Below are positions 1,917 to 35,605 of a stretch of DNA of 64,000 bases, piece after piece. Location of the stretch: sequence record NZ_CP023526.1. One strand, 5' to 3'. Each line of letters begins with the position of its first letter. Positions within the stretch are counted from its first letter, which is position 1. The DNA is from a plasmid. The notes beneath the pieces are model-generated. The model was not told the origin of the DNA. It worked only from the letters and a program-made list of their open reading frames with translations, and did no database searches. Both the position numbers and the translations under genes were made by a program.

Positions 1917-2549
1917 TTAACCAGCTGCACCCAACAAAGCCTGAATAGGCTTAAAATGATGAGTCGCAATGATATTCCTACTCTCCCAGCGGTCATGTGA
2001 AGCCTGCAGATTTATCCAAAAATCTTCGTCTGTCTGGAACAAAACGGCCAGCTGCGATGCTTCCGCTACACTCAGCCGGCGGCTGTTATTTACGATCTGC
2101 CCGATGACTTTACGGGACACGCCCATAACCAGCGCCAGTTCAGCCTGGGTGATATTCAGCGGCTTTAAAAACTCTTCAGAGAGCATTTCGCTTACAGTGG
2201 TAGGTTCTGCAACAGTCGTATCCATATCCCCCCCGTAACGGTATTTATGCGGATCGAGATAAATCTCGTAAGCGTGGCCGTCACGCCAGCGGAAAATCAA
2301 TCGCCACTGGAGACTAACCCGAATGCTTGACCAGCCTTCAAGGTTGCCACGCAAACGCTCATAGTTATTACTTGGCGGCGCAAACAGGGTTTTCTCACTG
2401 CTGGCCGCTTCAATAAGCGACAACTTACGACGAAGAGGCTTTTCAATCATGACCGGAATCCCTGCGCTTCTCTTCCCATTCAGATAGAACCGGGCAAGCT
2501 CACCATCCTGGCCGTCCTTAAAGCTACCAATCATCATTCGGCTCGTCAT
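1917..2549 (-). CDS. HigB-like RelE/ParE toxin fused in-frame to a HigA-like HTH (XRE) antitoxin, as a single 210-aa ORF.
   Basis: The N-terminal ~105 aa resemble HigB plasmid-killer proteins (RLRGNLEGWSSIRVSLQWRLIFRW...YLDPHKY). The C-terminal ~100 aa resemble HigA (LNITQAELALVMGVSRKVIGQIVNNSRRLSVAEASQLAVLF). No stop codon separates the two. Confidence 0.75.
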   Translation of the reverse strand: MTSRMMIGSFKDGQDGELARFYLNGKRSAGIPVMIEKPLRRKLSLIEAASSEKTLFAPPSNNYERLRGNLEGWSSIRVSLQWRLIFRWRDGHAYEIYLDPHKYRYGGDMDTTVAEPTTVSEMLSEEFLKPLNITQAELALVMGVSRKVIGQIVNNSRRLSVAEASQLAVLFQTDEDFWINLQASHDRWESRNIIATHHFKPIQALLGAAG

Positions 2550-2887: not shown

Positions 2888-3143
2888 GGGGTCAGTTTGG
2901 ATATAAAGAATTATTGTACGGTAGGCCTGTTTTTTGAACAGGTCAGGCCATCGCAGTAGGGTGTACTCCCGCGCTATATAGCGTCTGCTGTAGATTTTGT
3001 CTAATCGGACAACCTAAATGCGATACTGCAAGGACGATAACTTAATGGCAATAGCCACTGACGCCAAATCAATCCCTTACGTGTCATAGTTGGTTAAAAA
3101 ATACTCCTAACGTACAAAAATGTTCGATCTCCAAACTGACCCC
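2888..3143. mobile_element. MITE-like non-autonomous element, ~256 bp, with terminal inverted repeats GGGGTCAGTTTGGA...TCCAAACTGACCCC.
   Basis: Perfect 14-bp TIRs are seen directly. A partial copy lies at 1840 and a diverged full copy at 62860. There is an internal hairpin and no coding capacity. Confidence 0.7.
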
Positions 3144-3165: not shown

Positions 3166-3507
3166 ATGGCGGCTTGCCGCTTACAACCCCATGCACTGAG
3201 GAAACATGCTATCGGTCTTGTATCGACGCTGTCGTGGTTGCCGGATGACAGAGAATCAGTGCGAGCTTCCTTACCGATAGCCTTTTTGAGGCCGCCATTG
3301 GCGGGGGGCAGGCTTAGCTGCCAGGCTTTCTATGAAAGGTGTAAAGACATTCTGATGTCCTGGGCAATCCGGGGGGCACGTCACGACGCGGGTATGGGTC
3401 TTCTGGAAAACGGAGTGACAGCGCTTGTAGTTCTGGCTACCAGGGAAGGAACTGCCGCTGCCGTTGATGTCTTAAAAGTGCAGTTCCGGAAAATGTTGAC
3501 GGGCTGA
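3166..3507 (+). other. Uncharacterised 113-aa ORF, possibly a gene remnant.
   Basis: ORF only. The downstream 3.5-3.8 kb holds only short broken frames. Confidence 0.2.
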
Positions 3508-3820
3508 TGCCCCCACACCGTAAGTCCGTGGCCGTGTTGCAGCCCGCCTCGTCAGACGCATCAGTGAAGTCCGTCGCTACGCGGGTATCCCTTCATCTCG
3601 TATTGAACATGAGCTTGCACTGCTTGAACATAGTGCTGCACGTGTAATGATCCATGAGATGGCGGAAATCCTTGCGCCCGGGCAAATACAGCCGCAGTGA
3701 TCCGGAAGAGTAAACCAGGGGGGCCGGGCATGGCTGATACGAAGCCTGGCCCCGGAGGTCACTCTGGCTTCAACAAAGAAAATCATTGCCCTCGCTTTTC
3801 GGGGAAGGGCATATGTACGG

Positions 3821-5182
3821 TTACTTCACTTTTTCACCCATGATGTAGGTATGTTCTATGGTGCGATCGTCACCCATCATTTCAATTGCGAAGATTTTGC
3901 TTTCGACCGATTTGCTGTTCTCAGTTCTGATTTTCAACGCATTGTCACTCTGTGGATTGATAACGATGAAGTCGGCTTCTTTCCCTGGAGTGAAACTTCC
4001 AATTACGTGGTCAAGTGACAGGGCTCTTGCTCCTCCAAGGGTCGCCATATACCAGTTTTCCATCGGATCGAGAGGGTGGATATTTTCGGGTGTTTCTGTG
4101 AACGCTTTTCTTAACTGCGTCACGTTGTAGGCTCCCCCCATAACTTTAAGCATGGACAGACTGGTACCGCCCCCAACGTCAGTTCCCAGTCCTGTTTTAA
4201 CCTGATTTTTCTGGCTCTGTTCCAGATTGAATAACCCGCTCCCCAAAAACAGATTCGACAAGGGGCAGAACGCCACACTGCTGTGTAACGTTGCCAGTAT
4301 CTGAAAATCTGCATCAGAAACATGAACTGAATGGGCAAAAACAGACTTCGGCGTGACGAGACCATAATGTCTGTAAACATCCAGGTAACTTTTGCTCCAT
4401 GGGAACAAGGTTTTCACCCAGGAGACCTCCTGCCAGTTCTCTGCCAGATGGGTTTGCAACCAGACATCCGGGTATTCACGTAATAACCTGCCGGCTACCC
4501 GCAGTTCTGCCTCACTGGAAGTGGGCGCGAATCGTGGGGTAACGGCGTAACCCAGGCGTCCCTTATTTTTCCATTTCTCTATCAGCATTTTGCTCTGCTG
4601 GTAAGCCGTCTCTGGCGTGTCCAGTAGCGGGGCCGGCGCATTCCTGTCCATCAGCACTTTTCCGGAGATGAGACGCATATTTTTCCCAAGCGCTTTGCTG
4701 AACAGCGCATCCACAGAAACGGGATTGCTGGTGGCAAAGACCAGTGCTGTTGTAGTGCCATTGTTGATCAGTTCGTCGATAAATTTCCCGGCATAAATAG
4801 TGGCATGCTCCGGTGCACTGAATTTTATTTCGGTCGGGAAAACATAATCGTCCAGCCAGTCGAGGAGTTGTTTTCCATAAGAGGCTGTCATTTCGATTTG
4901 AGGAAAGTGTACGTGTGTGTCAACAAATCCGGGGGATATTATTTTCCCGCTATAATCAATAATCTGGTCAGGATGATATTTTGCCTGCATCGCAGTGGAT
5001 GAGCCGACATCAACAATATATCCGTCTTTTACCAGTAATAAGCCATTATGGATATAATGGCGGGACTGTATTTTCTCTTGAGGATCTCCCGTAAAGTGTA
5101 ATATATCGCCTTTATAACCCGTTAATGATGCATGGGTAATGAAAGGTGCAAGCAACAGGCTTGCAAAAAATGCGTGTTTCAT
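3821..5182 (-). CDS. Amidohydrolase-superfamily guanine-deaminase-like enzyme with an N-terminal signal-peptide-like extension.
   Basis: PGFVDTHVHFPQ metal-binding HxH motif and a GTDVGGG region typical of guanine deaminase. The N-terminus (MKHAFFASLLLAPFITHA) is signal-peptide-like. Confidence 0.7.
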   Translation of the reverse strand: MKHAFFASLLLAPFITHASLTGYKGDILHFTGDPQEKIQSRHYIHNGLLLVKDGYIVDVGSSTAMQAKYHPDQIIDYSGKIISPGFVDTHVHFPQIEMTASYGKQLLDWLDDYVFPTEIKFSAPEHATIYAGKFIDELINNGTTTALVFATSNPVSVDALFSKALGKNMRLISGKVLMDRNAPAPLLDTPETAYQQSKMLIEKWKNKGRLGYAVTPRFAPTSSEAELRVAGRLLREYPDVWLQTHLAENWQEVSWVKTLFPWSKSYLDVYRHYGLVTPKSVFAHSVHVSDADFQILATLHSSVAFCPLSNLFLGSGLFNLEQSQKNQVKTGLGTDVGGGTSLSMLKVMGGAYNVTQLRKAFTETPENIHPLDPMENWYMATLGGARALSLDHVIGSFTPGKEADFIVINPQSDNALKIRTENSKSVESKIFAIEMMGDDRTIEHTYIMGEKVK

Positions 5183-5259
5183 TTTAATCCTTAAGGTATG
5201 TAAATGGTCTGGTGAAACGAGCTTTGTGTTCGTCTGTCCAGACCATTTTTAAAAAGAGT

Positions 5260-6105
5260 TTATTGTCTGATCAAACGTGTTGTTGGCAGAATGCTTTCAA
5301 AATCACTTCGGAACGGGTTGATATCCAGCCCACCACGCCTTGTATAACGGGCAAAAACGCTAAGTTTTTGCGGGCGGCAATATTGTTTAATATCCATGAA
5401 AATCCGCTCAACACATTGCTCATGAAATTCATTGTGGTTACGGAATGAAATGATGTAGTGAAGAAGCCGCTTTGGATTGATTTTCTTTCCTTCGTATTTA
5501 ATGATAAGACTGCCCCAGTCAGGCTGGTTCGTGACAAGACAATTTGATTTAAGCAGGTTTGATGTGAGCATCTCTGAAACAGTAATGGCGTCATCAGTCA
5601 CAGCATTGTTCAGTATTTCAGGGCTGAACGAGTAATCCTTAACGTCAATATCTTCATGGTCGATATTGATTCCCGGTAAGGCCATGATGGTATGATTAAA
5701 CCCGATAAAATGGGGGTACAGCCTGACTTTTACTTCCCCTCCCGCAACCTGGCTAAGATCCTTTGTGAGTATGGCTGCAACAGCATCATGGCTTCTGATC
5801 TTTGTCTGGTTAAAACTGTTGAGATACAGCTTCAGCGATTTGGATTCTATCAATCCCGGCGTCGTGGCCGGGATTTCAAACTCTCCAATGGCAACAATAG
5901 GTTTACCTTTTTCATTGAGCCAGGAAATTTCATATGCTGTCCACAGATCAAAACCTGAAAAGGGGAGGTTGCCCTCACCGGTAATTCCAGCCTGTTTTCT
6001 GCCCAAAGAGCGTGGTAACGACTCCAGAATGGACGGCGAGTAAGTCTGTGGGGGCGCTATTTTTGAACCCAGCACACTTAGCGCATCTTCATCGTAATCA
6101 GGCAT
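5260..6105 (-). CDS. queF: NADPH-dependent 7-cyano-7-deazaguanine (preQ0) reductase QueF, bimodular type.
   Basis: Near full-length similarity to E. coli QueF/YqcD (ESKSLKLYLNSFNQT, LLKSNCLVTNQPDWGS, HNEFHEQCVERIF, YTRRGGLDINP). Confidence 0.9.
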   Translation of the reverse strand: MPDYDEDALSVLGSKIAPPQTYSPSILESLPRSLGRKQAGITGEGNLPFSGFDLWTAYEISWLNEKGKPIVAIGEFEIPATTPGLIESKSLKLYLNSFNQTKIRSHDAVAAILTKDLSQVAGGEVKVRLYPHFIGFNHTIMALPGINIDHEDIDVKDYSFSPEILNNAVTDDAITVSEMLTSNLLKSNCLVTNQPDWGSLIIKYEGKKINPKRLLHYIISFRNHNEFHEQCVERIFMDIKQYCRPQKLSVFARYTRRGGLDINPFRSDFESILPTTRLIRQ

Positions 6106-6114
6106 GTTAATTCC

Positions 6115-6984
6115 TTATTGATTTACTGTGTGAATAAATTTTCTGAATAACTTTCGTGTCCCATAGATAGGAAATACACCGGAGACAGCGTAGATAAGTT
6201 TAATAATAAATTGCGATACGATCATGGCTTTAATTGTTGGAAGGCTGAGTACACCATAAAAAGCAATGCTACAAAAAATGATACTATCGATGGCTGCCGC
6301 ACAAACTGAACTGATGATGACCCTGACAAAGAGATACCTGGAGTTGGTCAGGACTTTTATTTTGCACAGCAACCATGAGTTGATGTTTTCGGAAAGGAGA
6401 TAGGCCAGAGAGGATGCAAGCAGTACAGCAATAATATTGTGAATGAAGTACCGATAGGCCTGATCGTGAGGCCATTCTTTAAGGTCTGGTAAAAGTGTAG
6501 TCATCCACAACCCCCCCACGAAGAGGATGTTAGCAATAAATGATATGATAATAGTTCTTCGCGCCATCTTAAGCCCGTAAAACTCATTGAGTATATCCAC
6601 CAGGATGAATGTCAGTGGATAGAAAAAAATGGCCGGGGGAATAATAAGATTAAATGTGGACAGATGGACAGGCTTTACACCGCTGACAGTGGACAGAATG
6701 TAAATGACAGCCAGTGCTAAACTGATGGAGAAATATGCGTACCAGGAACGTTCATTTCGGTCGCTCATTTCATACTCAGTGGTTATGTTGTGGTGCATAT
6801 ACAGTTTTTTGTGTAGCGCTTTTATTTCATGAGGATTTAAATCATCTGAGATTTCTGAGTCGTCAAGCTCCTTCAGGGGCATGGCAATCACTTTCCCGGT
6901 CGACAGAACCAGCACTCTGGCAGTGATGATTTCGCCAAAGAGAAAGCCCAATAGTTTGTATTTAAGATTGTATTTCACTGACAT
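6115..6984 (-). CDS. YhhQ/COG1738-family queuosine-precursor (preQ0/preQ1) transporter with an ~80-aa N-terminal extension.
   Basis: Multi-TM protein with a FILVDILNEFYG motif typical of the YhhQ (DUF165) family. It sits immediately upstream of queF. Confidence 0.65.
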   Translation of the reverse strand: MSVKYNLKYKLLGFLFGEIITARVLVLSTGKVIAMPLKELDDSEISDDLNPHEIKALHKKLYMHHNITTEYEMSDRNERSWYAYFSISLALAVIYILSTVSGVKPVHLSTFNLIIPPAIFFYPLTFILVDILNEFYGLKMARRTIIISFIANILFVGGLWMTTLLPDLKEWPHDQAYRYFIHNIIAVLLASSLAYLLSENINSWLLCKIKVLTNSRYLFVRVIISSVCAAAIDSIIFCSIAFYGVLSLPTIKAMIVSQFIIKLIYAVSGVFPIYGTRKLFRKFIHTVNQ

Positions 6985-7589
6985 ATTTCCTCAATCAGGA
7001 CGCCTAACCAGACTTCCTGGTTGTCACAGTTGTTTTCTTCCGATGACGTTTCTCTGATTTTTAGCGTGTTGTTGTTATCCAGAAACAGCGAGGGCAGCAG
7101 GCTTCGTTTAAAGGGGGAACGATTCACGATGAGTAAGGTCCCCACATCAAAAGTCTCCCCCATCTCGGCATCAATCAGAAGCGCAATAAAATTTCCACCT
7201 GAACTGAAATACCAGGTAGTATCAAAAATCTGTATGAGCTGGCCTACAGTCTTTGAAAGTGTGTTGCGCAGGCAGGTCCCCGGAATAATCGGGAGCGCAA
7301 TCGGGTTCTTGTTCCCGTTGAATGCTAATGTCTCCTCCGTTTGTTTCATTTTACCCAGGTCAGTATTCTCGATGGTTTCGCAGGAGATGCCAAAAAAATC
7401 AGAAATCCGGGTGACCGTCGACTGTTGTACATGACTGACTTTGCCTTCCAGTATTTTATAAATTGTTGCGCGAGTCAGACCTGTTTTCTGGCTGAAGGAC
7501 GTTTTAGTTTCGCCATGCTCCTCTATCAGGAAATTTATATTTTTAGCAATATTGCTATTACGTTGCGCATTTGTGATCCTATTGCTCAT
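6975..7589 (-). CDS. XRE-family HTH transcriptional regulator with a C-terminal S24/cupin-like domain.
   Basis: N-terminal HTH (TKTSFSQKTGLTRATIYKILEGK). Overlaps the transporter start by 10 bp. Confidence 0.65.
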   Translation of the reverse strand: MSNRITNAQRNSNIAKNINFLIEEHGETKTSFSQKTGLTRATIYKILEGKVSHVQQSTVTRISDFFGISCETIENTDLGKMKQTEETLAFNGNKNPIALPIIPGTCLRNTLSKTVGQLIQIFDTTWYFSSGGNFIALLIDAEMGETFDVGTLLIVNRSPFKRSLLPSLFLDNNNTLKIRETSSEENNCDNQEVWLGVLIEEICQ

Positions 7590-7892
7590 GTTTAACCTGT
7601 TCGCTAGCGAGATTTGAGAGAAGGACTGTTACGGAAGCTACGTTTCACAGCGTAGTGGACCAATAACGATTTTCTAATCGATTGTGTGTTTTTGTTGTTT
7701 ATTTCGGATGTTTCTCTTGTTGTCCTAATTTTAAATAAAACATCAGGTTGATGAGTTGCTTTTATGGAAGGATTCAAATTAATGATCACATGTTAATTAT
7801 TGTGTTGATTTTAATCCGAGGGTGCGCTATTCCTGCTTAAGTTGAGGTGCATCCATCTCTGAAAGGAATGAATTAAAAACAAGGCGGGAATA

Positions 7893-8501
7893 ATGATGTC
7901 AGCGCATCAATCGTTATCGGAAATAAAAAAGAAAATTCTTATTTTCATGTTGACAGTCGAGCGTCATTTTCCAGGTTCTTTCCCGATAAGATATATTCAT
8001 AAATCGCTTGGTATTGACAGTGTTTATTATTCCTGTGGGCTGCTGGAGTCCGCAGGTTTGGTTTGCCTGCAGCGAAAGCCCAATCGCAGGGTCTTTATCG
8101 AGCTGACCGATGCCGGGCGTGCGATGGCGGCTTCGCTGATGCCTGTGGAATATTGTCAACATCGGGAGGCCGGGAACCGGATCTTACCTTCCCGCGCTCA
8201 GAGAAGAGAGATGCGGGACATTGAAATCGACATCAGAGGGCGGCCTTACATTGTCAGCCGGGCGGCATTTGTTATCCATCCCGATGGCACGACAAGCCTT
8301 GCCTTGTGGAGTAAAAATAAAGGTCAGGCCTGGCTGAACGGTAATGCCCGCCAGGTCAGTGAGTGGTACCAGGCCTGCTATGACGCCGGGTTGCCTGTCA
8401 GTGTGCAGGTTGAAGATGATCGGTGGATGGCCAGCCTGGACGACAGATTGCCACACCTTTCACGAGGGGAAGCCGTCGTTATTTTTCCCTCACCATGCTG
8501 A
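7893..8501 (+). CDS. Hypothetical protein with an N-terminal winged-helix-like region.
   Basis: 202-aa ORF divergent from the queF operon. No confident family. Confidence 0.45.
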   Translation: MMSAHQSLSEIKKKILIFMLTVERHFPGSFPIRYIHKSLGIDSVYYSCGLLESAGLVCLQRKPNRRVFIELTDAGRAMAASLMPVEYCQHREAGNRILPSRAQRREMRDIEIDIRGRPYIVSRAAFVIHPDGTTSLALWSKNKGQAWLNGNARQVSEWYQACYDAGLPVSVQVEDDRWMASLDDRLPHLSRGEAVVIFPSPC

Positions 8502-8689
8502 GTTAGGCGTGACCGGGCAGGCAGACCGGAAACAAAATGCCATTTTATCTCTGCATTTGAGGACATCCGAGGCCTTACACTGATACGCCTGAACATACGG
8601 CCATTATTGACTGGAAAGGGGAGCGCCTGCCAACCCTGAAAGCCGGTTGCTGTACCCGGCCTATAACCGGACCGCCAGGGATGAGGCTG

Positions 8690-9039
8690 AGCAGACGTAC
8701 CCCTTCAGCGTGGAATGCAAAACCTCCCATCAACGGGCATAGCCGGGGTTCGGGCGTCCCACCTGATCAGCAATCTGCGTATCACCGATAATCTTCGGCT
8801 GCTCAACACCCACCACTGGCCTCTGGCGCGTAGCGCACTGGACACGCTCAGCCATTTTCTCTGCAGCGGTTAAGTGAGCATCTCAAAGAGCTGGATAGTC
8901 AGTTCGTCGAACAGGAGAAAGAAATCCAGTACCAGCATCGTGAAAATGTGAACCGCCGGAGATTATCGGAGATACCCGGCTCTGGTCCGATAACGACAAG
9001 CGCTCTGATGGCGTGGAAAACCGATCCCGCATCTGCATA
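8690..9039 (+). pseudogene. IS110-family transposase remnant (C-terminal region).
   Basis: Frame translates to ...SEIPGSGPITTSALMAWKTDPAS, resembling the IS110-family C-terminal signature. The upstream part is broken by stops. Confidence 0.5.
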
Positions 9040-9257: not shown

Positions 9258-10040
9258 CTAGTGAGCCGATTTTGCAACAGTGCAGCTGTGATCCTGTAGT
9301 TCTTCCGCCGTCGCGGGAGAACTTACGCTTCCCGGATTGACCAGAAGCAGAAATTCGTCCGACCGTGTGCGCGCAGGTACGACAGTCACTTCTGCGTACT
9401 TCATATTGCTCCGATATCGCTCATGTACCAGGTCGAAAATGTTCTCATTGAGAAAAGCCGTTGCACTGAGCTTCCTGATATCATAGAGAATGTCTCGATC
9501 ATTTTTATTTTTAAGCGGCTTGCTTTCCCATCCCCATCCCAGTTTTTCGATATCAAGGTCACTGAGGCTTTGTTGGGTTTTTGCCGCCAGGCAGGATATA
9601 TGAATATGCAAATGATTTTGTGTCCGGCTATTTACCGGATTGATGGTCAGGGCAATATCTTTCTCCGCCAGTTTTTTCCCTCGTTGTTTTAGTTGGTCAA
9701 AGACAAAACCACGTGATTGCCAGGCACTGTAAAACAAGCTACTCACCGGATGCGTGTAGGGACGACTAAGAACGCCTTTATCCTCAATACCTGTGACATT
9801 GTCCATCGGCAGCAGAAGAAACTGGTTATCACTGGCGGTTCTTGTTTTCAGAATGACATACCCGGCCTGATAGTCCATCAGGCTGCAGTCACCATAATTC
9901 CCCGCCTTTTTATACTGGTCCTCACAGCCCTGAAGTGCCTCATTCAGCTCATTGCCTGTGGCTGCCTGCAAGGCATGCGCGGACAAAATAGACGTACACA
10001 GCATACACATGAAAAATAGTCTTGATACAGAACCTGGCAT
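9258..10040 (-). CDS. cdh: CDP-diacylglycerol pyrophosphatase.
   Basis: Matches E. coli Cdh (RTQNHLHIHISC, AEELQDH.C) and has an N-terminal signal sequence. Confidence 0.85.
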   Translation of the reverse strand: MPGSVSRLFFMCMLCTSILSAHALQAATGNELNEALQGCEDQYKKAGNYGDCSLMDYQAGYVILKTRTASDNQFLLLPMDNVTGIEDKGVLSRPYTHPVSSLFYSAWQSRGFVFDQLKQRGKKLAEKDIALTINPVNSRTQNHLHIHISCLAAKTQQSLSDLDIEKLGWGWESKPLKNKNDRDILYDIRKLSATAFLNENIFDLVHERYRSNMKYAEVTVVPARTRSDEFLLLVNPGSVSSPATAEELQDHSCTVAKSAH

Positions 10041-31890: not shown

Positions 31891-34800
31891 TTAAGCAATG
31901 TTTTCTTCCTCTGACGCCTCTTTTAATGGCCGCAAATGTCCTTTTGTCACCAGTTCTGCCAGTGTGAAGGAATAATGGCCGAGCATATTGATATGCCCGT
32001 GGCAAAGCGGTGAGAGTCGTGCAATATCTTCATCATTCAGGGTTTCCCCCTGTGCCCGGAGATGATCCAGGGCTGCCTGCATATAAATAGTGTTCCATAA
32101 CACGACGGCGTTAGTGACCAACCCCAGTGCGCCCAATTGATCTTCCTGACCGTCAGTATATCGCTTTCTTATCTCACCTTTCTGACCGTGACAAATAGCT
32201 CTGGCAACGGCATGGCGACTTTCTCCCCGGTTTAGTTGGGTCAGAATGCGCCGACGATAATCTTCATCATCAATATAATTAAGCAGATACAGCGTTTTGT
32301 TGATGCGTCCCACTTCAATGATTGCCTGAGTCAATCCGGAAGGGCGTTCACTCTTCAGTAACGAGCGAACCAGCACCGAAGCCTGCACCTTGCCCAACTT
32401 CAGGGAGCCTGCAGCCCGGATCATTTCGTCCCACTGAAGGACTATTTTTTGGGGTGCTGACTGCCCTCTGGCAATATCATTCAGCACCCCATAATCAGCG
32501 TCATTGTCCATGCGCCAGAAAACCGAAGCACCGGCATCAGCCAGGCGTGGGGAAAACTGGTATCCCAACAGCCAGAAAAGACCAAAGACAAGATCGCTGG
32601 CCCCAGCGGTATCGGTCATAATTTCGGTAGGATTCAGCCCAGTTTCCTGTTCCAGAAGGCCTTCCAGCACAAAGATTGAGTCTCTCAGCGTCCCTGGTAT
32701 AACAATGCCATGAAAGCCGGAATACTGATCGGACATAAAGTTGTACCAGGTGATCCCCCTGTTATGGCCAAAGTATTTGCGGTTCGGTCCGGCATTGATT
32801 GTTCTGACCGGCGTAACAAAGCGCATTCCGTCTGCAGAGGCCACTTCGCCACCACCCCAGACCTGTGCCAGTGGCAGCGTTGCCTGAAAATCAACCAGCC
32901 TGGCATTCGCACTGGTGATAGTTTCAGCCCGCAGGTAGTTTGCTTTTGTCCAGTTCAGCCGGTGTCGGGTCAGGGCTGGAACATTTGACCGTATCAGGGG
33001 CTCCAGGCCGATATTGCAGGCCTCAGCCATCAGTACGGCGCTGATGCTGATGGGCAGATCGTCAACTCTGGCGCTGGCTTCGCTGGCGTGGAAAAACTCA
33101 TCAGCAAATCCGGTGTGGGCATTGATTTCGAGCAACAGCTCTGTCAAATCTACAGTCGGAAGCAGATCACTGACCTGTTTGCTCAGTCGTTTCAGACTGT
33201 CCGGTTCGTCAAGACTGGCGAGGGGAGAAATTGTCAGCCTGGGTTTTGGGCCGGAAATATCCAGTTTAACCGCCTCATTTTCGCCAAGGCGTGCGGCAAC
33301 CTGCCTGTAACGGGTGTCCAATTGGAGACCCAGCGATTTTATTGCGTCCTGTGGATTCGTCGGGTGCCCCAGAGAACGATAAACTTTAATTCGGTTTGCC
33401 TGCCAGTCTGCGCCCTGTAGTAATTTTTCGCGGGGATCGCCCCACCGGCTACTGCCGGTGACGTAGACATCCCGCCGCCTCAGGCTGTCCTGCAGTTTAC
33501 TGAGAAAGCACAGCGTGTATCCCCTTCGGGTAATATGTTTTTCCTTATTAACAACCAGTCGTTTCCATGGACGGCTAATGATTTCCGTTGGTGCATCATC
33601 AAAATACTGCCGCCGTGAGCTGAACTCGCGGCTGAGGTAATCGCAGGCATTCAGGATAGTGCTCCCGGCGGGAGCTGCTGAAAATTTAACGGTATTCAGC
33701 AGACGGGGCAGGAAACGACGAACCCGCCCGTACTGTTCCACCATTTCGTCATGAAAGTTATCGTCTGATGGTCGGGCAATTTCGTGGACAAGTGCGATGA
33801 TGTCGGCCAGTTTTTGCCTTGAGATGTGGCTGAATACTTCAGCCCGGATTGATTCGTCCGGCGTTTCCTCTTTCAGCAGGTACGAACATGCGCTGGCGAG
33901 CGCCAGTGCTGATTTATCCAGATCTTTCAGCGATCGGAGCCGTTTTTTCTGCCCAATCTTTCTGGCGTCACGGATGATAACAGCCAGCATGGCATCCAGA
34001 ACGTCCAGAGCATCATCCAGCGCCAGCGTCTCCCATGCAAGGACAAAGGCAACCAGTATCACTGTCCTTTTCTGCGGAGCCATCCTGGCGATATTGAACA
34101 CCGAAGTCATTCCCGCATAACGAGCGAGATTTTTTAGACGTACAGCCGGGATCGCACTCAGATTATCAGTATGAAGGCCAAAATCGCTCAGCGTTTTCCA
34201 GCGATCAATTGCCTCATTAAACGCCGGGCCGCTGATGGTGACCGGGCCTTTCTTCAGTGATTCCAGCAAAGACAGGCGGCCGGAATCAGCAGGTCCCAGC
34301 AGCGTCTCCAGTTGTGAACGCTGCACGGCAGACGGAATCATTGCCAGCCTGTTCCACAGTCGCAGCGTTGCCTTTTCCCTTACCTCTGAAATCAGTCGGG
34401 TCAGCGTGGTCGCGCCGGGGAGAATAATCCTGTGCTGCATCAGCCACCCTGTAGCCAGCTCAAAAAGCAGGCCCGGACGCTCGTTGCTTATCCAGCTCCG
34501 GGTATATAAAAGACGGGTAAGACGAAAAGTCCAGGGCCAGGAAAATTCACGATAATCATAATGCTGACGTATCAGCGCGGCATGCTCACGACGGGTATTT
34601 TCTCTCTGGCCGTATTCTGCCAGCACGGTGATATCATGGATGGCGAGCTGTCTGGCAATAAAGTGCCGAACGCCGGAAGGAATATGATTCATATCGGTGA
34701 GGAAGGTGCCCAGAAAACGGACGCATCCAATTTGCAGGGCAATACCCAAACGATTGTGATCACCTCTGCTTTTTCCGATAAATTCCTTGTCTGCTTCATC

Positions 34801-34896
34801 AAGGTGAAAATATCGTGCCAACTGAAGCTCATCCGGCTCACCGGTGAATCGACCATAGCTTTCAGTCTGCTCAGTGGTCAGAAAATCGACGGGCAT
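31891..34896 (-). CDS. tnpA: Tn3 transposase TnpA (1001 aa).
   Basis: Essentially colinear with the Tn3/Tn1/Tn2 TnpA sequence. Confidence 0.95.
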   Translation of the reverse strand: MPVDFLTTEQTESYGRFTGEPDELQLARYFHLDEADKEFIGKSRGDHNRLGIALQIGCVRFLGTFLTDMNHIPSGVRHFIARQLAIHDITVLAEYGQRENTRREHAALIRQHYDYREFSWPWTFRLTRLLYTRSWISNERPGLLFELATGWLMQHRIILPGATTLTRLISEVREKATLRLWNRLAMIPSAVQRSQLETLLGPADSGRLSLLESLKKGPVTISGPAFNEAIDRWKTLSDFGLHTDNLSAIPAVRLKNLARYAGMTSVFNIARMAPQKRTVILVAFVLAWETLALDDALDVLDAMLAVIIRDARKIGQKKRLRSLKDLDKSALALASACSYLLKEETPDESIRAEVFSHISRQKLADIIALVHEIARPSDDNFHDEMVEQYGRVRRFLPRLLNTVKFSAAPAGSTILNACDYLSREFSSRRQYFDDAPTEIISRPWKRLVVNKEKHITRRGYTLCFLSKLQDSLRRRDVYVTGSSRWGDPREKLLQGADWQANRIKVYRSLGHPTNPQDAIKSLGLQLDTRYRQVAARLGENEAVKLDISGPKPRLTISPLASLDEPDSLKRLSKQVSDLLPTVDLTELLLEINAHTGFADEFFHASEASARVDDLPISISAVLMAEACNIGLEPLIRSNVPALTRHRLNWTKANYLRAETITSANARLVDFQATLPLAQVWGGGEVASADGMRFVTPVRTINAGPNRKYFGHNRGITWYNFMSDQYSGFHGIVIPGTLRDSIFVLEGLLEQETGLNPTEIMTDTAGASDLVFGLFWLLGYQFSPRLADAGASVFWRMDNDADYGVLNDIARGQSAPQKIVLQWDEMIRAAGSLKLGKVQASVLVRSLLKSERPSGLTQAIIEVGRINKTLYLLNYIDDEDYRRRILTQLNRGESRHAVARAICHGQKGEIRKRYTDGQEDQLGALGLVTNAVVLWNTIYMQAALDHLRAQGETLNDEDIARLSPLCHGHINMLGHYSFTLAELVTKGHLRPLKEASEEENIA

Positions 34897-34957
34897 ACCG
34901 GCCTCCCTGCCTGACGGCTATTTGTTAATAACTTTGTAACCGTCCGAAATGTTATAA

Positions 34958-35605
<648 letters not shown>

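Follow-up and report, generated by a model that had tools for sequence, protein, structure and literature searches.

Microbial communities share queuosine precursors as micronutrients, and the competition of bacteria for them is an active question. In Escherichia coli, YhhQ imports preQ0 (7-cyano-7-deazaguanine) and preQ1, and genes of its family, COG1738, cluster with queuosine (Q) genes (Zallot et al. 2017, PMC5372724; PMC11130926). The E. coli protein has six helices and a cytoplasmic C-terminus (PMC5372724). Here we describe a four-gene locus on a 64,000-nt stretch of plasmid DNA (sequence record NZ_CP023526.1), the whole of which is referred to below as the window. The locus encodes an XRE-type regulator, a transporter related to YhhQ, QueF and a guanine deaminase with a predicted signal peptide. 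A first-pass annotation of this DNA had read it as a non-canonical 7-deazaguanine salvage operon in which the exported enzyme supplies QueF. We consider it probable that the locus is instead a preQ0/preQ1 import-and-reduction operon under protein control, accompanied by a periplasmic guanine deaminase as a passenger.

On this account, the locus would be a two-part, horizontally mobile cassette whose first part is a diverged copy of a chromosomal XRE-transporter-QueF module. The transporter, of the Vut_1/QPTR family, would import preQ0 and probably preQ1, QueF would reduce preQ0 to preQ1, and the host tRNA-guanine transglycosylase (TGT) would put preQ1 into tRNA; the co-translated XRE protein would set expression, replacing the preQ1 riboswitch that is used for yhhQ in E. 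coli. The second part would be a stand-alone gene for an exported deaminase that landed, apparently not long ago and with its ribosome binding site (RBS), just behind the terminator of the complete three-gene operon, and that is expressed probably by read-through of the terminator hairpin. Its product would convert guanine to xanthine and ammonia in the periplasm as an independent passenger, serving purine or nitrogen scavenging or the detoxification of guanine analogues, outside 7-deazaguanine salvage. The family of each protein and the pairing of transporter with QueF are already known; the new points are the architecture of regulator plus N-domain, its mobilization in cassette form, and a broad guanine deaminase clade with predicted export. 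Known pathways are not overturned, and a new 7-deazaguanine conversion step is unlikely.

The regulator and transporter belong to a conserved module

Four collinear, tightly packed minus-strand genes were confirmed from the sequence, with all four open reading frames (ORFs) located exactly where the first-pass annotation had placed them (Table 1). The XRE and transporter genes overlap by 10 nt (ATGTCAGTGA), 9 nt separate the transporter gene from queF, and 77 nt separate queF from the deaminase gene. Pfam and NCBIfam matches agreed with the identities proposed earlier for the XRE protein, the YhhQ-type transporter and QueF.

The transporter matched PF02592 (Vut_1) with an E-value of 5.6e-38 (131 bits) and TIGR00697 with 86.7 bits against a cut-off of 51. 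Like E. coli YhhQ/QPTR, which falls in the same Pfam family and TIGR00697 equivalog, it is a predicted multi-helix inner-membrane protein. Against the YhhQ equivalog NF008406/PRK11212 it scored only 23.5 bits, the cut-off being 252, and we assign it to a subfamily separate from YhhQ that bears an N-terminal domain. It differs from E. coli YhhQ in this domain of ~80 aa, in the translationally coupled XRE gene that precedes it, and in having no preQ1 riboswitch: no riboswitch, preQ1 or other, was matched in Rfam between positions 3000 and 9000 at E≤5, nor anywhere in the window at the gathering threshold. A word-seeded search returned 129 relatives, nearly all of 285–300 aa, with members in Serratia, Xenorhabdus, Photorhabdus, Dickeya, Erwinia, Mixta, Moritella, Vibrio and Pseudomonas. 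The transported substrate would be preQ0 and probably preQ1.

We scanned one genome per species and obtained 38 loci with a full-length extended transporter, which may represent one monophyletic lineage, so that the co-occurrence counts are not independent events; 40 loci with ordinary, short Vut_1 genes formed the comparison set. An XRE homolog (32–49% identity) lay immediately upstream of the extended transporter in 38 of 38 loci and at none of the 40 ordinary Vut_1 loci. In most of the 38, the stop codon of the XRE gene touches or overlaps the start of the transporter gene, the gap otherwise being at most 39 nt. The XRE gene had been proposed as a partner of the transporter, and this proposal held throughout. 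QueF (53–63% identity) was found immediately downstream in 24 of the 38 loci, which also bears out the transporter-QueF pairing as a salvage unit; it was absent from the other 14, including two whose contigs end too early. With its spread over Enterobacterales, Vibrio, Pseudomonas and Moritella, the XRE-transporter(-QueF) arrangement is, judged by this conservation, an old and widely conserved module that is chromosomal in many Gammaproteobacteria.

Like COG1738 genes generally, the window-type transporter thus adjoins a Q gene, QueF in most cases and QueC in Pseudomonas. In Pseudomonas saxonica (L032:9334-11611), an XRE-transporter pair without QueF is convergent with QueC (PF06508, 1.5e-78). 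Unimodular QueF occurred near ~16 of the 40 ordinary Vut_1 loci, in a gene order that is the reverse of that in the gammaproteobacterial module; in Anaerolineales and other metagenome-assembled genomes (L051-L066, L080), a unimodular (type I) QueF lies ~15–100 nt upstream of a short Vut_1 gene. The syd/ppnN synteny that we take to be typical of E. coli queF was not seen around the module in Serratia, Pseudomonas or Vibrio. A sizeable COG1738 subfamily with a dedicated DNA-binding regulator and an extra domain, and with no riboswitch, offers a testable handle on the regulation of uptake.

The N-terminal domain of the transporter

The unusual N-terminal extension of ~80 aa remarked on in the first-pass annotation proved to be real and conserved, with 12 invariant positions in 21 sequences that ranged down to 40% identity. 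In an AlphaFold2 model of the transporter (pLDDT 83.5 overall), residues 9–61 form a core of three strands and three short helices (pLDDT 86–91), followed by a disordered linker at residues 66–75. An exhaustive search with the N-domain only found 27 representatives in 1.84 billion proteins, essentially all of them members of this transporter family or short proteins that we took as its fragments. The domain would lie on the cytoplasmic side, since YhhQ has a topology of six transmembrane helices with the C-terminus inside.

Foldseek returned no PDB match to the fold below E = 0.1. Resemblances to a chromoshadow domain or to the N-terminal domain of CarD appeared among the weak Foldseek matches, and we distrusted them. 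P0372, a 742-aa protein with seven N-domain matches, was set aside as repeat-inflated noise, since it belongs with the eukaryote-type 'HA' repeat proteins (PF03457) and is helical where the model has strands. Two unusual chains were also encountered. In P0375, a 253-aa metagenomic protein, the XRE linker (…EGNMNPCAVP…) is fused in frame to the transporter N-domain and membrane part, without the XRE C-terminal domain; this is either a natural deletion and fusion or an assembly artefact. P0269 (445 aa; 63% identical to the window QueF) combines QueF_N, QueF and Vut_1 in one chain and is possibly a QueF-transporter fusion, possibly a merged gene call.

The constant company of regulator and N-domain raises another reading of the first part, namely a sensor-transporter pair with a main role other than queuosine salvage for tRNA. 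As in Mlc-PtsG or MalT-MalK, the state of transport would decide whether the N-domain holds or releases the XRE protein, which might act on further genes as well; QueF would be an optional accessory. The association in 38 of 38 loci against 0 of 40, across four orders and with translational coupling, argues for such a pair, as does the absence of QueF from 14 of the 38 loci (two of them unjudgeable at contig ends). The N-domain is, moreover, compact, confidently modeled, confined to the family and placed on the cytoplasmic side, and P0375 provides one natural in-frame fusion of the XRE linker to it. Against this, the idea is drawn purely from co-occurrence, perhaps within a single monophyletic lineage, and we regard it as quite unlikely. 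It would be compatible with an import operon that carries a passenger deaminase.

The XRE regulator and the control region

The XRE protein matched HTH_26 (2.9e-07) and HTH_3 (4e-05), with the helix-turn-helix (HTH) at residues ~16–73, and all 20 family members examined matched as well. An invariant linker, G-N-K-N-P-x-A-x-P, occupies residues 92–100 and is followed by a beta-rich C-terminal domain. The protein thereby resembles lambda CI and LexA in its layout, an N-terminal Cro/CI HTH joined by a linker to a beta-rich C-terminal domain that is similar in size and has a 'PGDxLIIKR'-like motif, and differs from them in that its C-terminal half has no detectable homology. The pattern 'PGDxLIIKR...GxIIEER' had prompted us to consider a LexA/CI (S24) identity for this half, and neither hhalign, Pfam nor PDB profiles supported it. 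An hhalign comparison of the XRE alignment with LexA gave nothing beyond the HTH, Peptidase_S24 was matched in Pfam by 1 of 20 members and weakly (E = 0.023), with no Ser-Lys dyad motif, and a PDB profile search with the XRE protein matched the HTH only. In a single-sequence AlphaFold2 model, pLDDT fell below 30 past residue 80.

The XRE protein would repress or otherwise control the operon. No sigma-70 consensus promoter was found at the cassette, including the divergent intergenic region at 7590-7892 and the DNA upstream of the deaminase gene, and no operator was common to all genera upstream of the XRE genes. Genus-specific palindromes occur there, such as TACATTAA-N-TAAATGTA in Mixta and Pantoea, and the intergenic region lies within a block that is kept in a related locus, L004, at 87% identity.

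QueF

QueF scored 375 bits against TIGR03138 (cut-off 293), matched both PF14819 (QueF_N, 1e-42) and PF14489 (6.4e-29), and aligned over its full length with Vibrio cholerae QueF (3BP1, 296 bits). It has the same two-domain architecture, catalytic residues and QueF motif as the bimodular enzymes E. coli YqcD and V. cholerae QueF, from which it differs in being located on a mobile cassette. The catalytic Cys (KSNCL), Asp (QPDWGS) and His (EFHEQC) are kept together with the motif ESKSLKLYLNS, and the window QueF is by these residues catalytically intact. Outside the cassette copies it is at most 65% identical to any QueF, and its gene presumably supplements a queF that the host already has.

A clade of guanine deaminases with predicted export signals

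The first-pass annotation had called the fourth protein a guanine-deaminase-like amidohydrolase. The family assignment was right and the qualifier '-like' can be dropped: the protein scored far above the curated equivalog cut-offs over its full length (601 bits for NF006679, cut-off 351; 544 bits for TIGR02967, cut-off 375), the next-best family, 5'-deoxyadenosine deaminase, reached 221 bits, below its own cut-off of 522, and E. coli GuaD (PDB 6OHB) aligned end to end over the whole catalytic domain (446 bits). The two motifs quoted earlier, PGFVDTHVHFPQ and GTDVGGG, are both present. In 121 sequences (120 homologs plus E. coli GuaD) the metal ligands H90, H92, H245, H284 and D335, the catalytic E248 and the substrate contacts Q95 and R217 are invariant, and F218 of the window protein falls in a column that is Phe in 115 of 121 and Ser in 6. 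The HxH, Q, R-F, HxxE, H and D residues are thus the same as in E. coli GuaD. Because the metal, catalytic and substrate residues do not vary, the catalytic core is, as far as sequence can tell, that of an ordinary guanine deaminase. The window protein differs from E. coli GuaD in a predicted Sec signal peptide, replaced in some relatives by a lipoprotein signal, and in a clade-specific insertion of ~9–10 aa near residues 361–370.

The guanine deaminase profile match begins only at residue 21, after the N-terminus MKHAFFASLLLAPFITHA/SLTGYKG. This N-terminus has the n/h/c layout of a signal peptide, with MKH, AFFASLLLAPFI and THA followed by S, and contains no twin-arginine motif. Its start codon is credible because of a strong RBS, TAAGGA, that is invariant across six aligned homologous loci. 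The apparent Sec signal peptide noted in the first pass is conserved in the orthologs, which do not have the ordinary N-terminus of a standard cytoplasmic GuaD: a signal-peptide-like N-terminus was counted, heuristically, in 105 of the 120 best homologs (52–93% identity), directly preceding the conserved start of the mature domain, GY(R/K)G(D/E)(I/V)L(Y/H)F. Eleven of these 105 have a lipobox and only one a twin-arginine-like motif. Among 93 sequences with a placeable cleavage site, position -1 was Ala in 66, and the site lay mostly 3–4 residues ahead of the conserved GY(R/K)G; small residues at -1 and -3 were search criteria, and only the Ala preference and the positioning of the site are informative.

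The clade includes proteins from Enterobacter, Pantoea, Salmonella, Vibrio, Massilia and other Oxalobacteraceae, Microbulbifer and Mucilaginibacter. In a crude neighbor-joining tree, the 15 signal-less members were scattered within it and E. coli GuaD fell outside. Export appears from these N-termini to be the rule in the clade; the window protein is predicted to be Sec-exported, and its location would be periplasmic. We found no description of an exported or periplasmic guanine deaminase, and nothing linking a guanine deaminase to 7-deazaguanines, in the searchable full-text literature, which does not cover subscription journals. Precedents by analogy exist in phosphotriesterase OPD, a Tat-exported (twin-arginine translocated) enzyme of the amidohydrolase superfamily, and in asparaginase II, a periplasmic deaminating scavenger. 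The likeness lies in an amidohydrolase-fold enzyme outside the cytoplasm and in ammonia being freed from nutrients in the periplasm; the substrates and the export route of the window deaminase are different. A guanine deaminase clade with export signals that spans Proteobacteria and Bacteroidota, partly on conjugative plasmids, departs from the textbook view of a cytoplasmic enzyme. It is relevant to purine turnover outside the cell, to nitrogen scavenging and perhaps to resistance against guanine-analogue antimetabolites.

The deaminase gene is solitary in relatives of at most 83% identity. It adjoins a resolvase gene in Enterobacter asburiae (L001), stands among unrelated genes at L002, L003, L009/L010 and in Microbulbifer (L095), and is cargo between IS66, resolvase, Tn3 remnants and TraI at L091-L093, a setting that looks like an F-type conjugative plasmid; the deaminase of these last loci (P0021) has entries in 65 blocks of the collection, of which 24 contigs were covered. 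No Q gene was present among the called genes near the stand-alone deaminases sampled (L001-L003, L009/L010, L091-L095). Only one plasmid in PLSDB, from Salmonella, gave a match that included the signal peptide; it was full length and annotated guaD. At L094 (7001-11759) in Massilia dura, the exported deaminase is followed by a Xan_ur (xanthine/uracil) permease, a 458-aa second amidohydrolase and a GntR regulator. The permease neighbor fits a scheme in which guanine is turned into xanthine in the periplasm before uptake, and the locus is a candidate periplasm-first guanine catabolic cluster.

We also looked for the deaminase from the side of the transporter. No guanine deaminase lay within 10 kb at any of the 38 module loci, and none turned up across the full set of 80 Vut_1 loci. 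The co-conservation of QueF, YhhQ-type transporter and amidohydrolase, which the first-pass annotation had named as a check on its reading, was confined to the closest cassette copies and was seen at 0 of 38 module loci and 0 of 40 other Vut_1 loci.

These data bear directly on the pathway proposed in the first pass, in which a 7-deazapurine or a related precursor is the substrate of the exported amidohydrolase, and the product feeds QueF. The deaminase gene adjoins those for QueF and the importer and is probably co-transcribed with them, the insertion has no counterpart in E. coli GuaD and could alter specificity, and related 2-amino-4-oxo heterocycles may be acceptable substrates, given that the guanine deaminase of Drosophila reportedly doubles as a dihydropterin deaminase (Kim et al. 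2009, among the references of PMC5270733). Every residue that defines a guanine deaminase is nevertheless invariant, with scores above the equivalog cut-offs, and the insertion is common to the whole clade, including many members without nearby Q genes. Deamination of preQ0 or preQ1 at C2 yields 7-deazaxanthines, which are not known to be substrates of QueF or TGT. The deaminase would therefore be unable to prepare a precursor for QueF, since removal of the 2-amino group leads to compounds that neither enzyme is known to use. With a triad that is conserved nowhere outside the closest cassette copies, and with stand-alone relatives at 83% identity and below, we do not retain the deaminase as an integral step of 7-deazaguanine salvage and judge that pathway to be extremely improbable.

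The junction of the two parts and the copies of the cassette

The four-gene arrangement was found only in the nearest relatives, L004 (deaminase 93% identical), L005-L008 (deaminase 91%) and L097, the last counted by a transporter identity of 99%, its only measured identity. The settings differ. In the window, ~2.8 kb of DNA that includes a HigBA-like ORF separate the cassette from kup, and at L097 the cassette lies directly beside kup without the HigBA segment; at L004 it stands alongside an integrase, a TraI_2 relaxase and a UvrD helicase, and at L005-L007 alongside IS605 and Tn3 remnants. The DNA block shared with L004 corresponds to window positions ~3191-8868 and is 87% identical, including a divergent 202-aa ORF. 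A Cedecea neteri deaminase on record is 100% identical to that of the window. No near-identical cassette DNA was present in E. coli genomes or PLSDB plasmids, and a scan of species-representative genomes found nothing closer than 65%; the cassette appears to be strain-specific. A 77% transporter relative, P0122, that might have helped to date the gain of the deaminase is on a contig that ends before QueF. An import-plus-reduction module can, by these copies, turn into mobile cargo.

When the cassette was compared with the stand-alone deaminase loci, similarity started ~22 nt upstream of the deaminase ATG. The spacer between queF and this point contains a hairpin at 5202-5248 (centroid -22.3 kcal/mol; z = -4.7, with none of 200 shuffled sequences reaching this stability), whose stem is conserved and whose loop is variable in L004 and L005, with a weak U-tract (UUU). 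A hairpin follows QueF in 4 of 6 chromosomal operons that we folded, those of Serratia (a textbook case), Xenorhabdus, Erwinia piriflorinigrans and Moritella; no convincing hairpin followed QueF in Vibrio (L043) or Erwinia aeris (L012). The hairpin probably marks the junction of two modules, and read-through is plausible here because the U-tract is weak. The deaminase would probably be expressed by such read-through, as there is no room and no consensus for a promoter of its own. The earlier view of the deaminase as an integral part of the salvage operon does not fit a similarity to solo copies that starts ~22 nt upstream of the gene and a terminator-like hairpin in between.

Several observations weigh against the passenger interpretation. 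That the four genes are still together after 7–23% protein divergence and in four or more genomic settings could mean that the combination is under selection. The hairpin ends ~18 nt short of the deaminase start, no deaminase promoter was found, and the gene is probably co-expressed with the salvage genes. The gene-level GC content of the deaminase (0.469) is not separated from that of the other three genes (0.409–0.444); all four fall below the neighboring core gene kup in both GC and third-position GC (GC3). A sliding-window GC profile (~50% against 42%) had looked suggestive as compositional proof of a mosaic, and gene-level GC and GC3 did not bear it out. There is hence no independent compositional proof of a mosaic, because gene-level GC fails to set the deaminase apart.

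The first of these observations would be expected if the deaminase cleared the way for the importer, that is, if the four genes formed a selected unit in which the exported enzyme either removed guanine, a would-be competitor of nanomolar preQ0/preQ1 for the transporter, or deaminated toxic guanine analogues such as 8-azaguanine before a newly acquired importer of purine analogues could take them up. The cassette is intact in four settings with all four genes diverging in parallel, the deaminase has only an RBS behind the hairpin, with no detectable promoter, and is probably co-expressed, and the signal peptide together with the topology of YhhQ would put the enzyme and the binding site of the transporter on the same compartment. 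Xanthine, unlike guanine, has no 2-amino group. On the other side, no deaminase was nearby at the 38 chromosomal modules or the 40 other Vut_1 loci, and for that reason the importer has no general need of one; exported deaminases are mostly solitary; and we found no literature linking guanine deaminase with QPTR or describing inhibition of QPTR by guanine. We consider this coupling unlikely.

A bolder combination would make the four genes a selected device for competitive scavenging, in which the exported deaminase clears guanine and its analogues, the repressor docks on the transporter N-domain with transport as the signal in place of a riboswitch, and exported guanine deaminases are a common, overlooked class of periplasmic purine-processing enzymes that spread on plasmids and islands. 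If this were true, the high-affinity importer would capture scarce 7-deazaguanine precursors selectively and safely. Drawing as it does on both the clearance and the sensor ideas, it seems to us rather improbable, and an import-and-reduction operon with a passenger deaminase remains the interpretation that we prefer.

Features of the locus

The features of the cassette are collected in Table 1. In the stretch downstream of the deaminase gene, an ORF at 3166-3507 has as its counterpart in L004 the 3' portion of a 749-aa DUF2254 gene.

Table 1. Coordinates of the cassette genes and associated features in the window
Feature	Coordinates	Strand	Length or position	Remarks
XRE/Cro-CI-type HTH protein	6975-7589	-	204 aa	
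Vut_1/COG1738 (QPTR-family) transporter	6115-6984	-	289 aa	predicted preQ0/preQ1 importer
Transporter N-terminal cytoplasmic domain	6730-6984	-	residues 1-85	predicted
Bimodular QueF	5260-6105	-	281 aa	
Hairpin in QueF-deaminase spacer	5202-5248	-		probably ancestral operon terminator or attenuator
Guanine deaminase, amidohydrolase superfamily, exported clade	3821-5182	-	453 aa	
Sec-type signal peptide of deaminase	5129-5182	-	residues 1-18	predicted; MKHAFFASLLLAPFITHA, cleavage predicted after THA
Divergently transcribed ORF traveling with cassette	7893-8501	+	202 aa	
Divergent intergenic region	7590-7892			presumed cassette promoter/operator, from position
Downstream stretch moving with cassette	3191-3820			gene remnants only

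The 202-aa ORF had no match in Pfam, NCBIfam, PHROG or PADLOC, and neither it nor the cassette genes showed a phage or defense-system affiliation in PHROG and PADLOC. Homologs with 57–64% aa identity adjoin the cassette in L004-L007; the ORF is not present at the chromosomal XRE-transporter loci. L005 and L006 have two homologs of it, each beside an HTH and Vut_1 gene pair, giving a duplicated layout of divergent ~180-aa ORF, HTH gene and overlapping Vut_1 gene (L005:532-2715 and L005:5559-8069, and likewise in L006). The second pair in L005 consists of a 221-aa HTH protein and a 212-aa Vut_1 protein without the N-domain, and the cassette XRE protein has no homology to this 221-aa protein beyond the HTH.

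Other features of the window

Of 20 ORFs that were scanned in the interval from 12.9 to 47.2 kb, none proved to be a further queuosine or Dpd gene. Close to the cassette, a 210-aa ORF (1917-2549, minus strand) combines a HigB-like toxin (residues 14–101, PF05015, 1.3e-24) with a HigA antitoxin HTH (residues 115–191, TIGR02607, 3.4e-20). Toxin and antitoxin, which one would expect to be separate genes, are thus apparently fused in frame. A divergent CDP-diacylglycerol pyrophosphatase paralog with a hydrophobic N-terminus is encoded at 9258-10040 (minus strand); it matched PF02611 (3.8e-43) and fell below all NCBIfam Cdh cut-offs. It is followed by a 478-aa protein (10083-11519, minus strand) that matched no family and whose N-terminus resembles a signal peptide.

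A 454-aa protein (12925-14289, plus strand) has a central part that is rich in Gly and Ala and membrane-like, and it ends in an effector kinase domain of the OspG type (PF22303, 6.8e-13); the DNA around it is GC-rich (0.60) with a strong GC skew. The window also encodes an RCC1-repeat protein (20824-22137, minus strand), a Fic/SoFic-type adenylyltransferase (28249-29325, plus strand) and an intact Tn3-family transposase of 1001 aa with its resolvase (31891-35605). Together, the RCC1, Fic and Tn3 genes suggest a large mosaic accessory or effector island. The isrN family of Hfq-binding small RNAs has been described from Salmonella islands; a full-length match to it (RF01396, 107 bits against a gathering score of 44) lies at 50344-50486 on the plus strand, here in Cedecea.

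Three plus-strand ORFs of 401, 645 and 459 aa (53267-57789) occur in the same order as an efflux-type trio at L007:439-4330, which comprises a membrane-fusion protein (401 aa), a MacB-type ABC protein (645 aa) and an outer-membrane factor (241 aa as called). The trio is ~2 kb upstream of the cassette in L007, and the size-matched ORFs of the window are ~46 kb away from it. If the two sets correspond, as their sizes and order suggest, the island has been rearranged among related strains.

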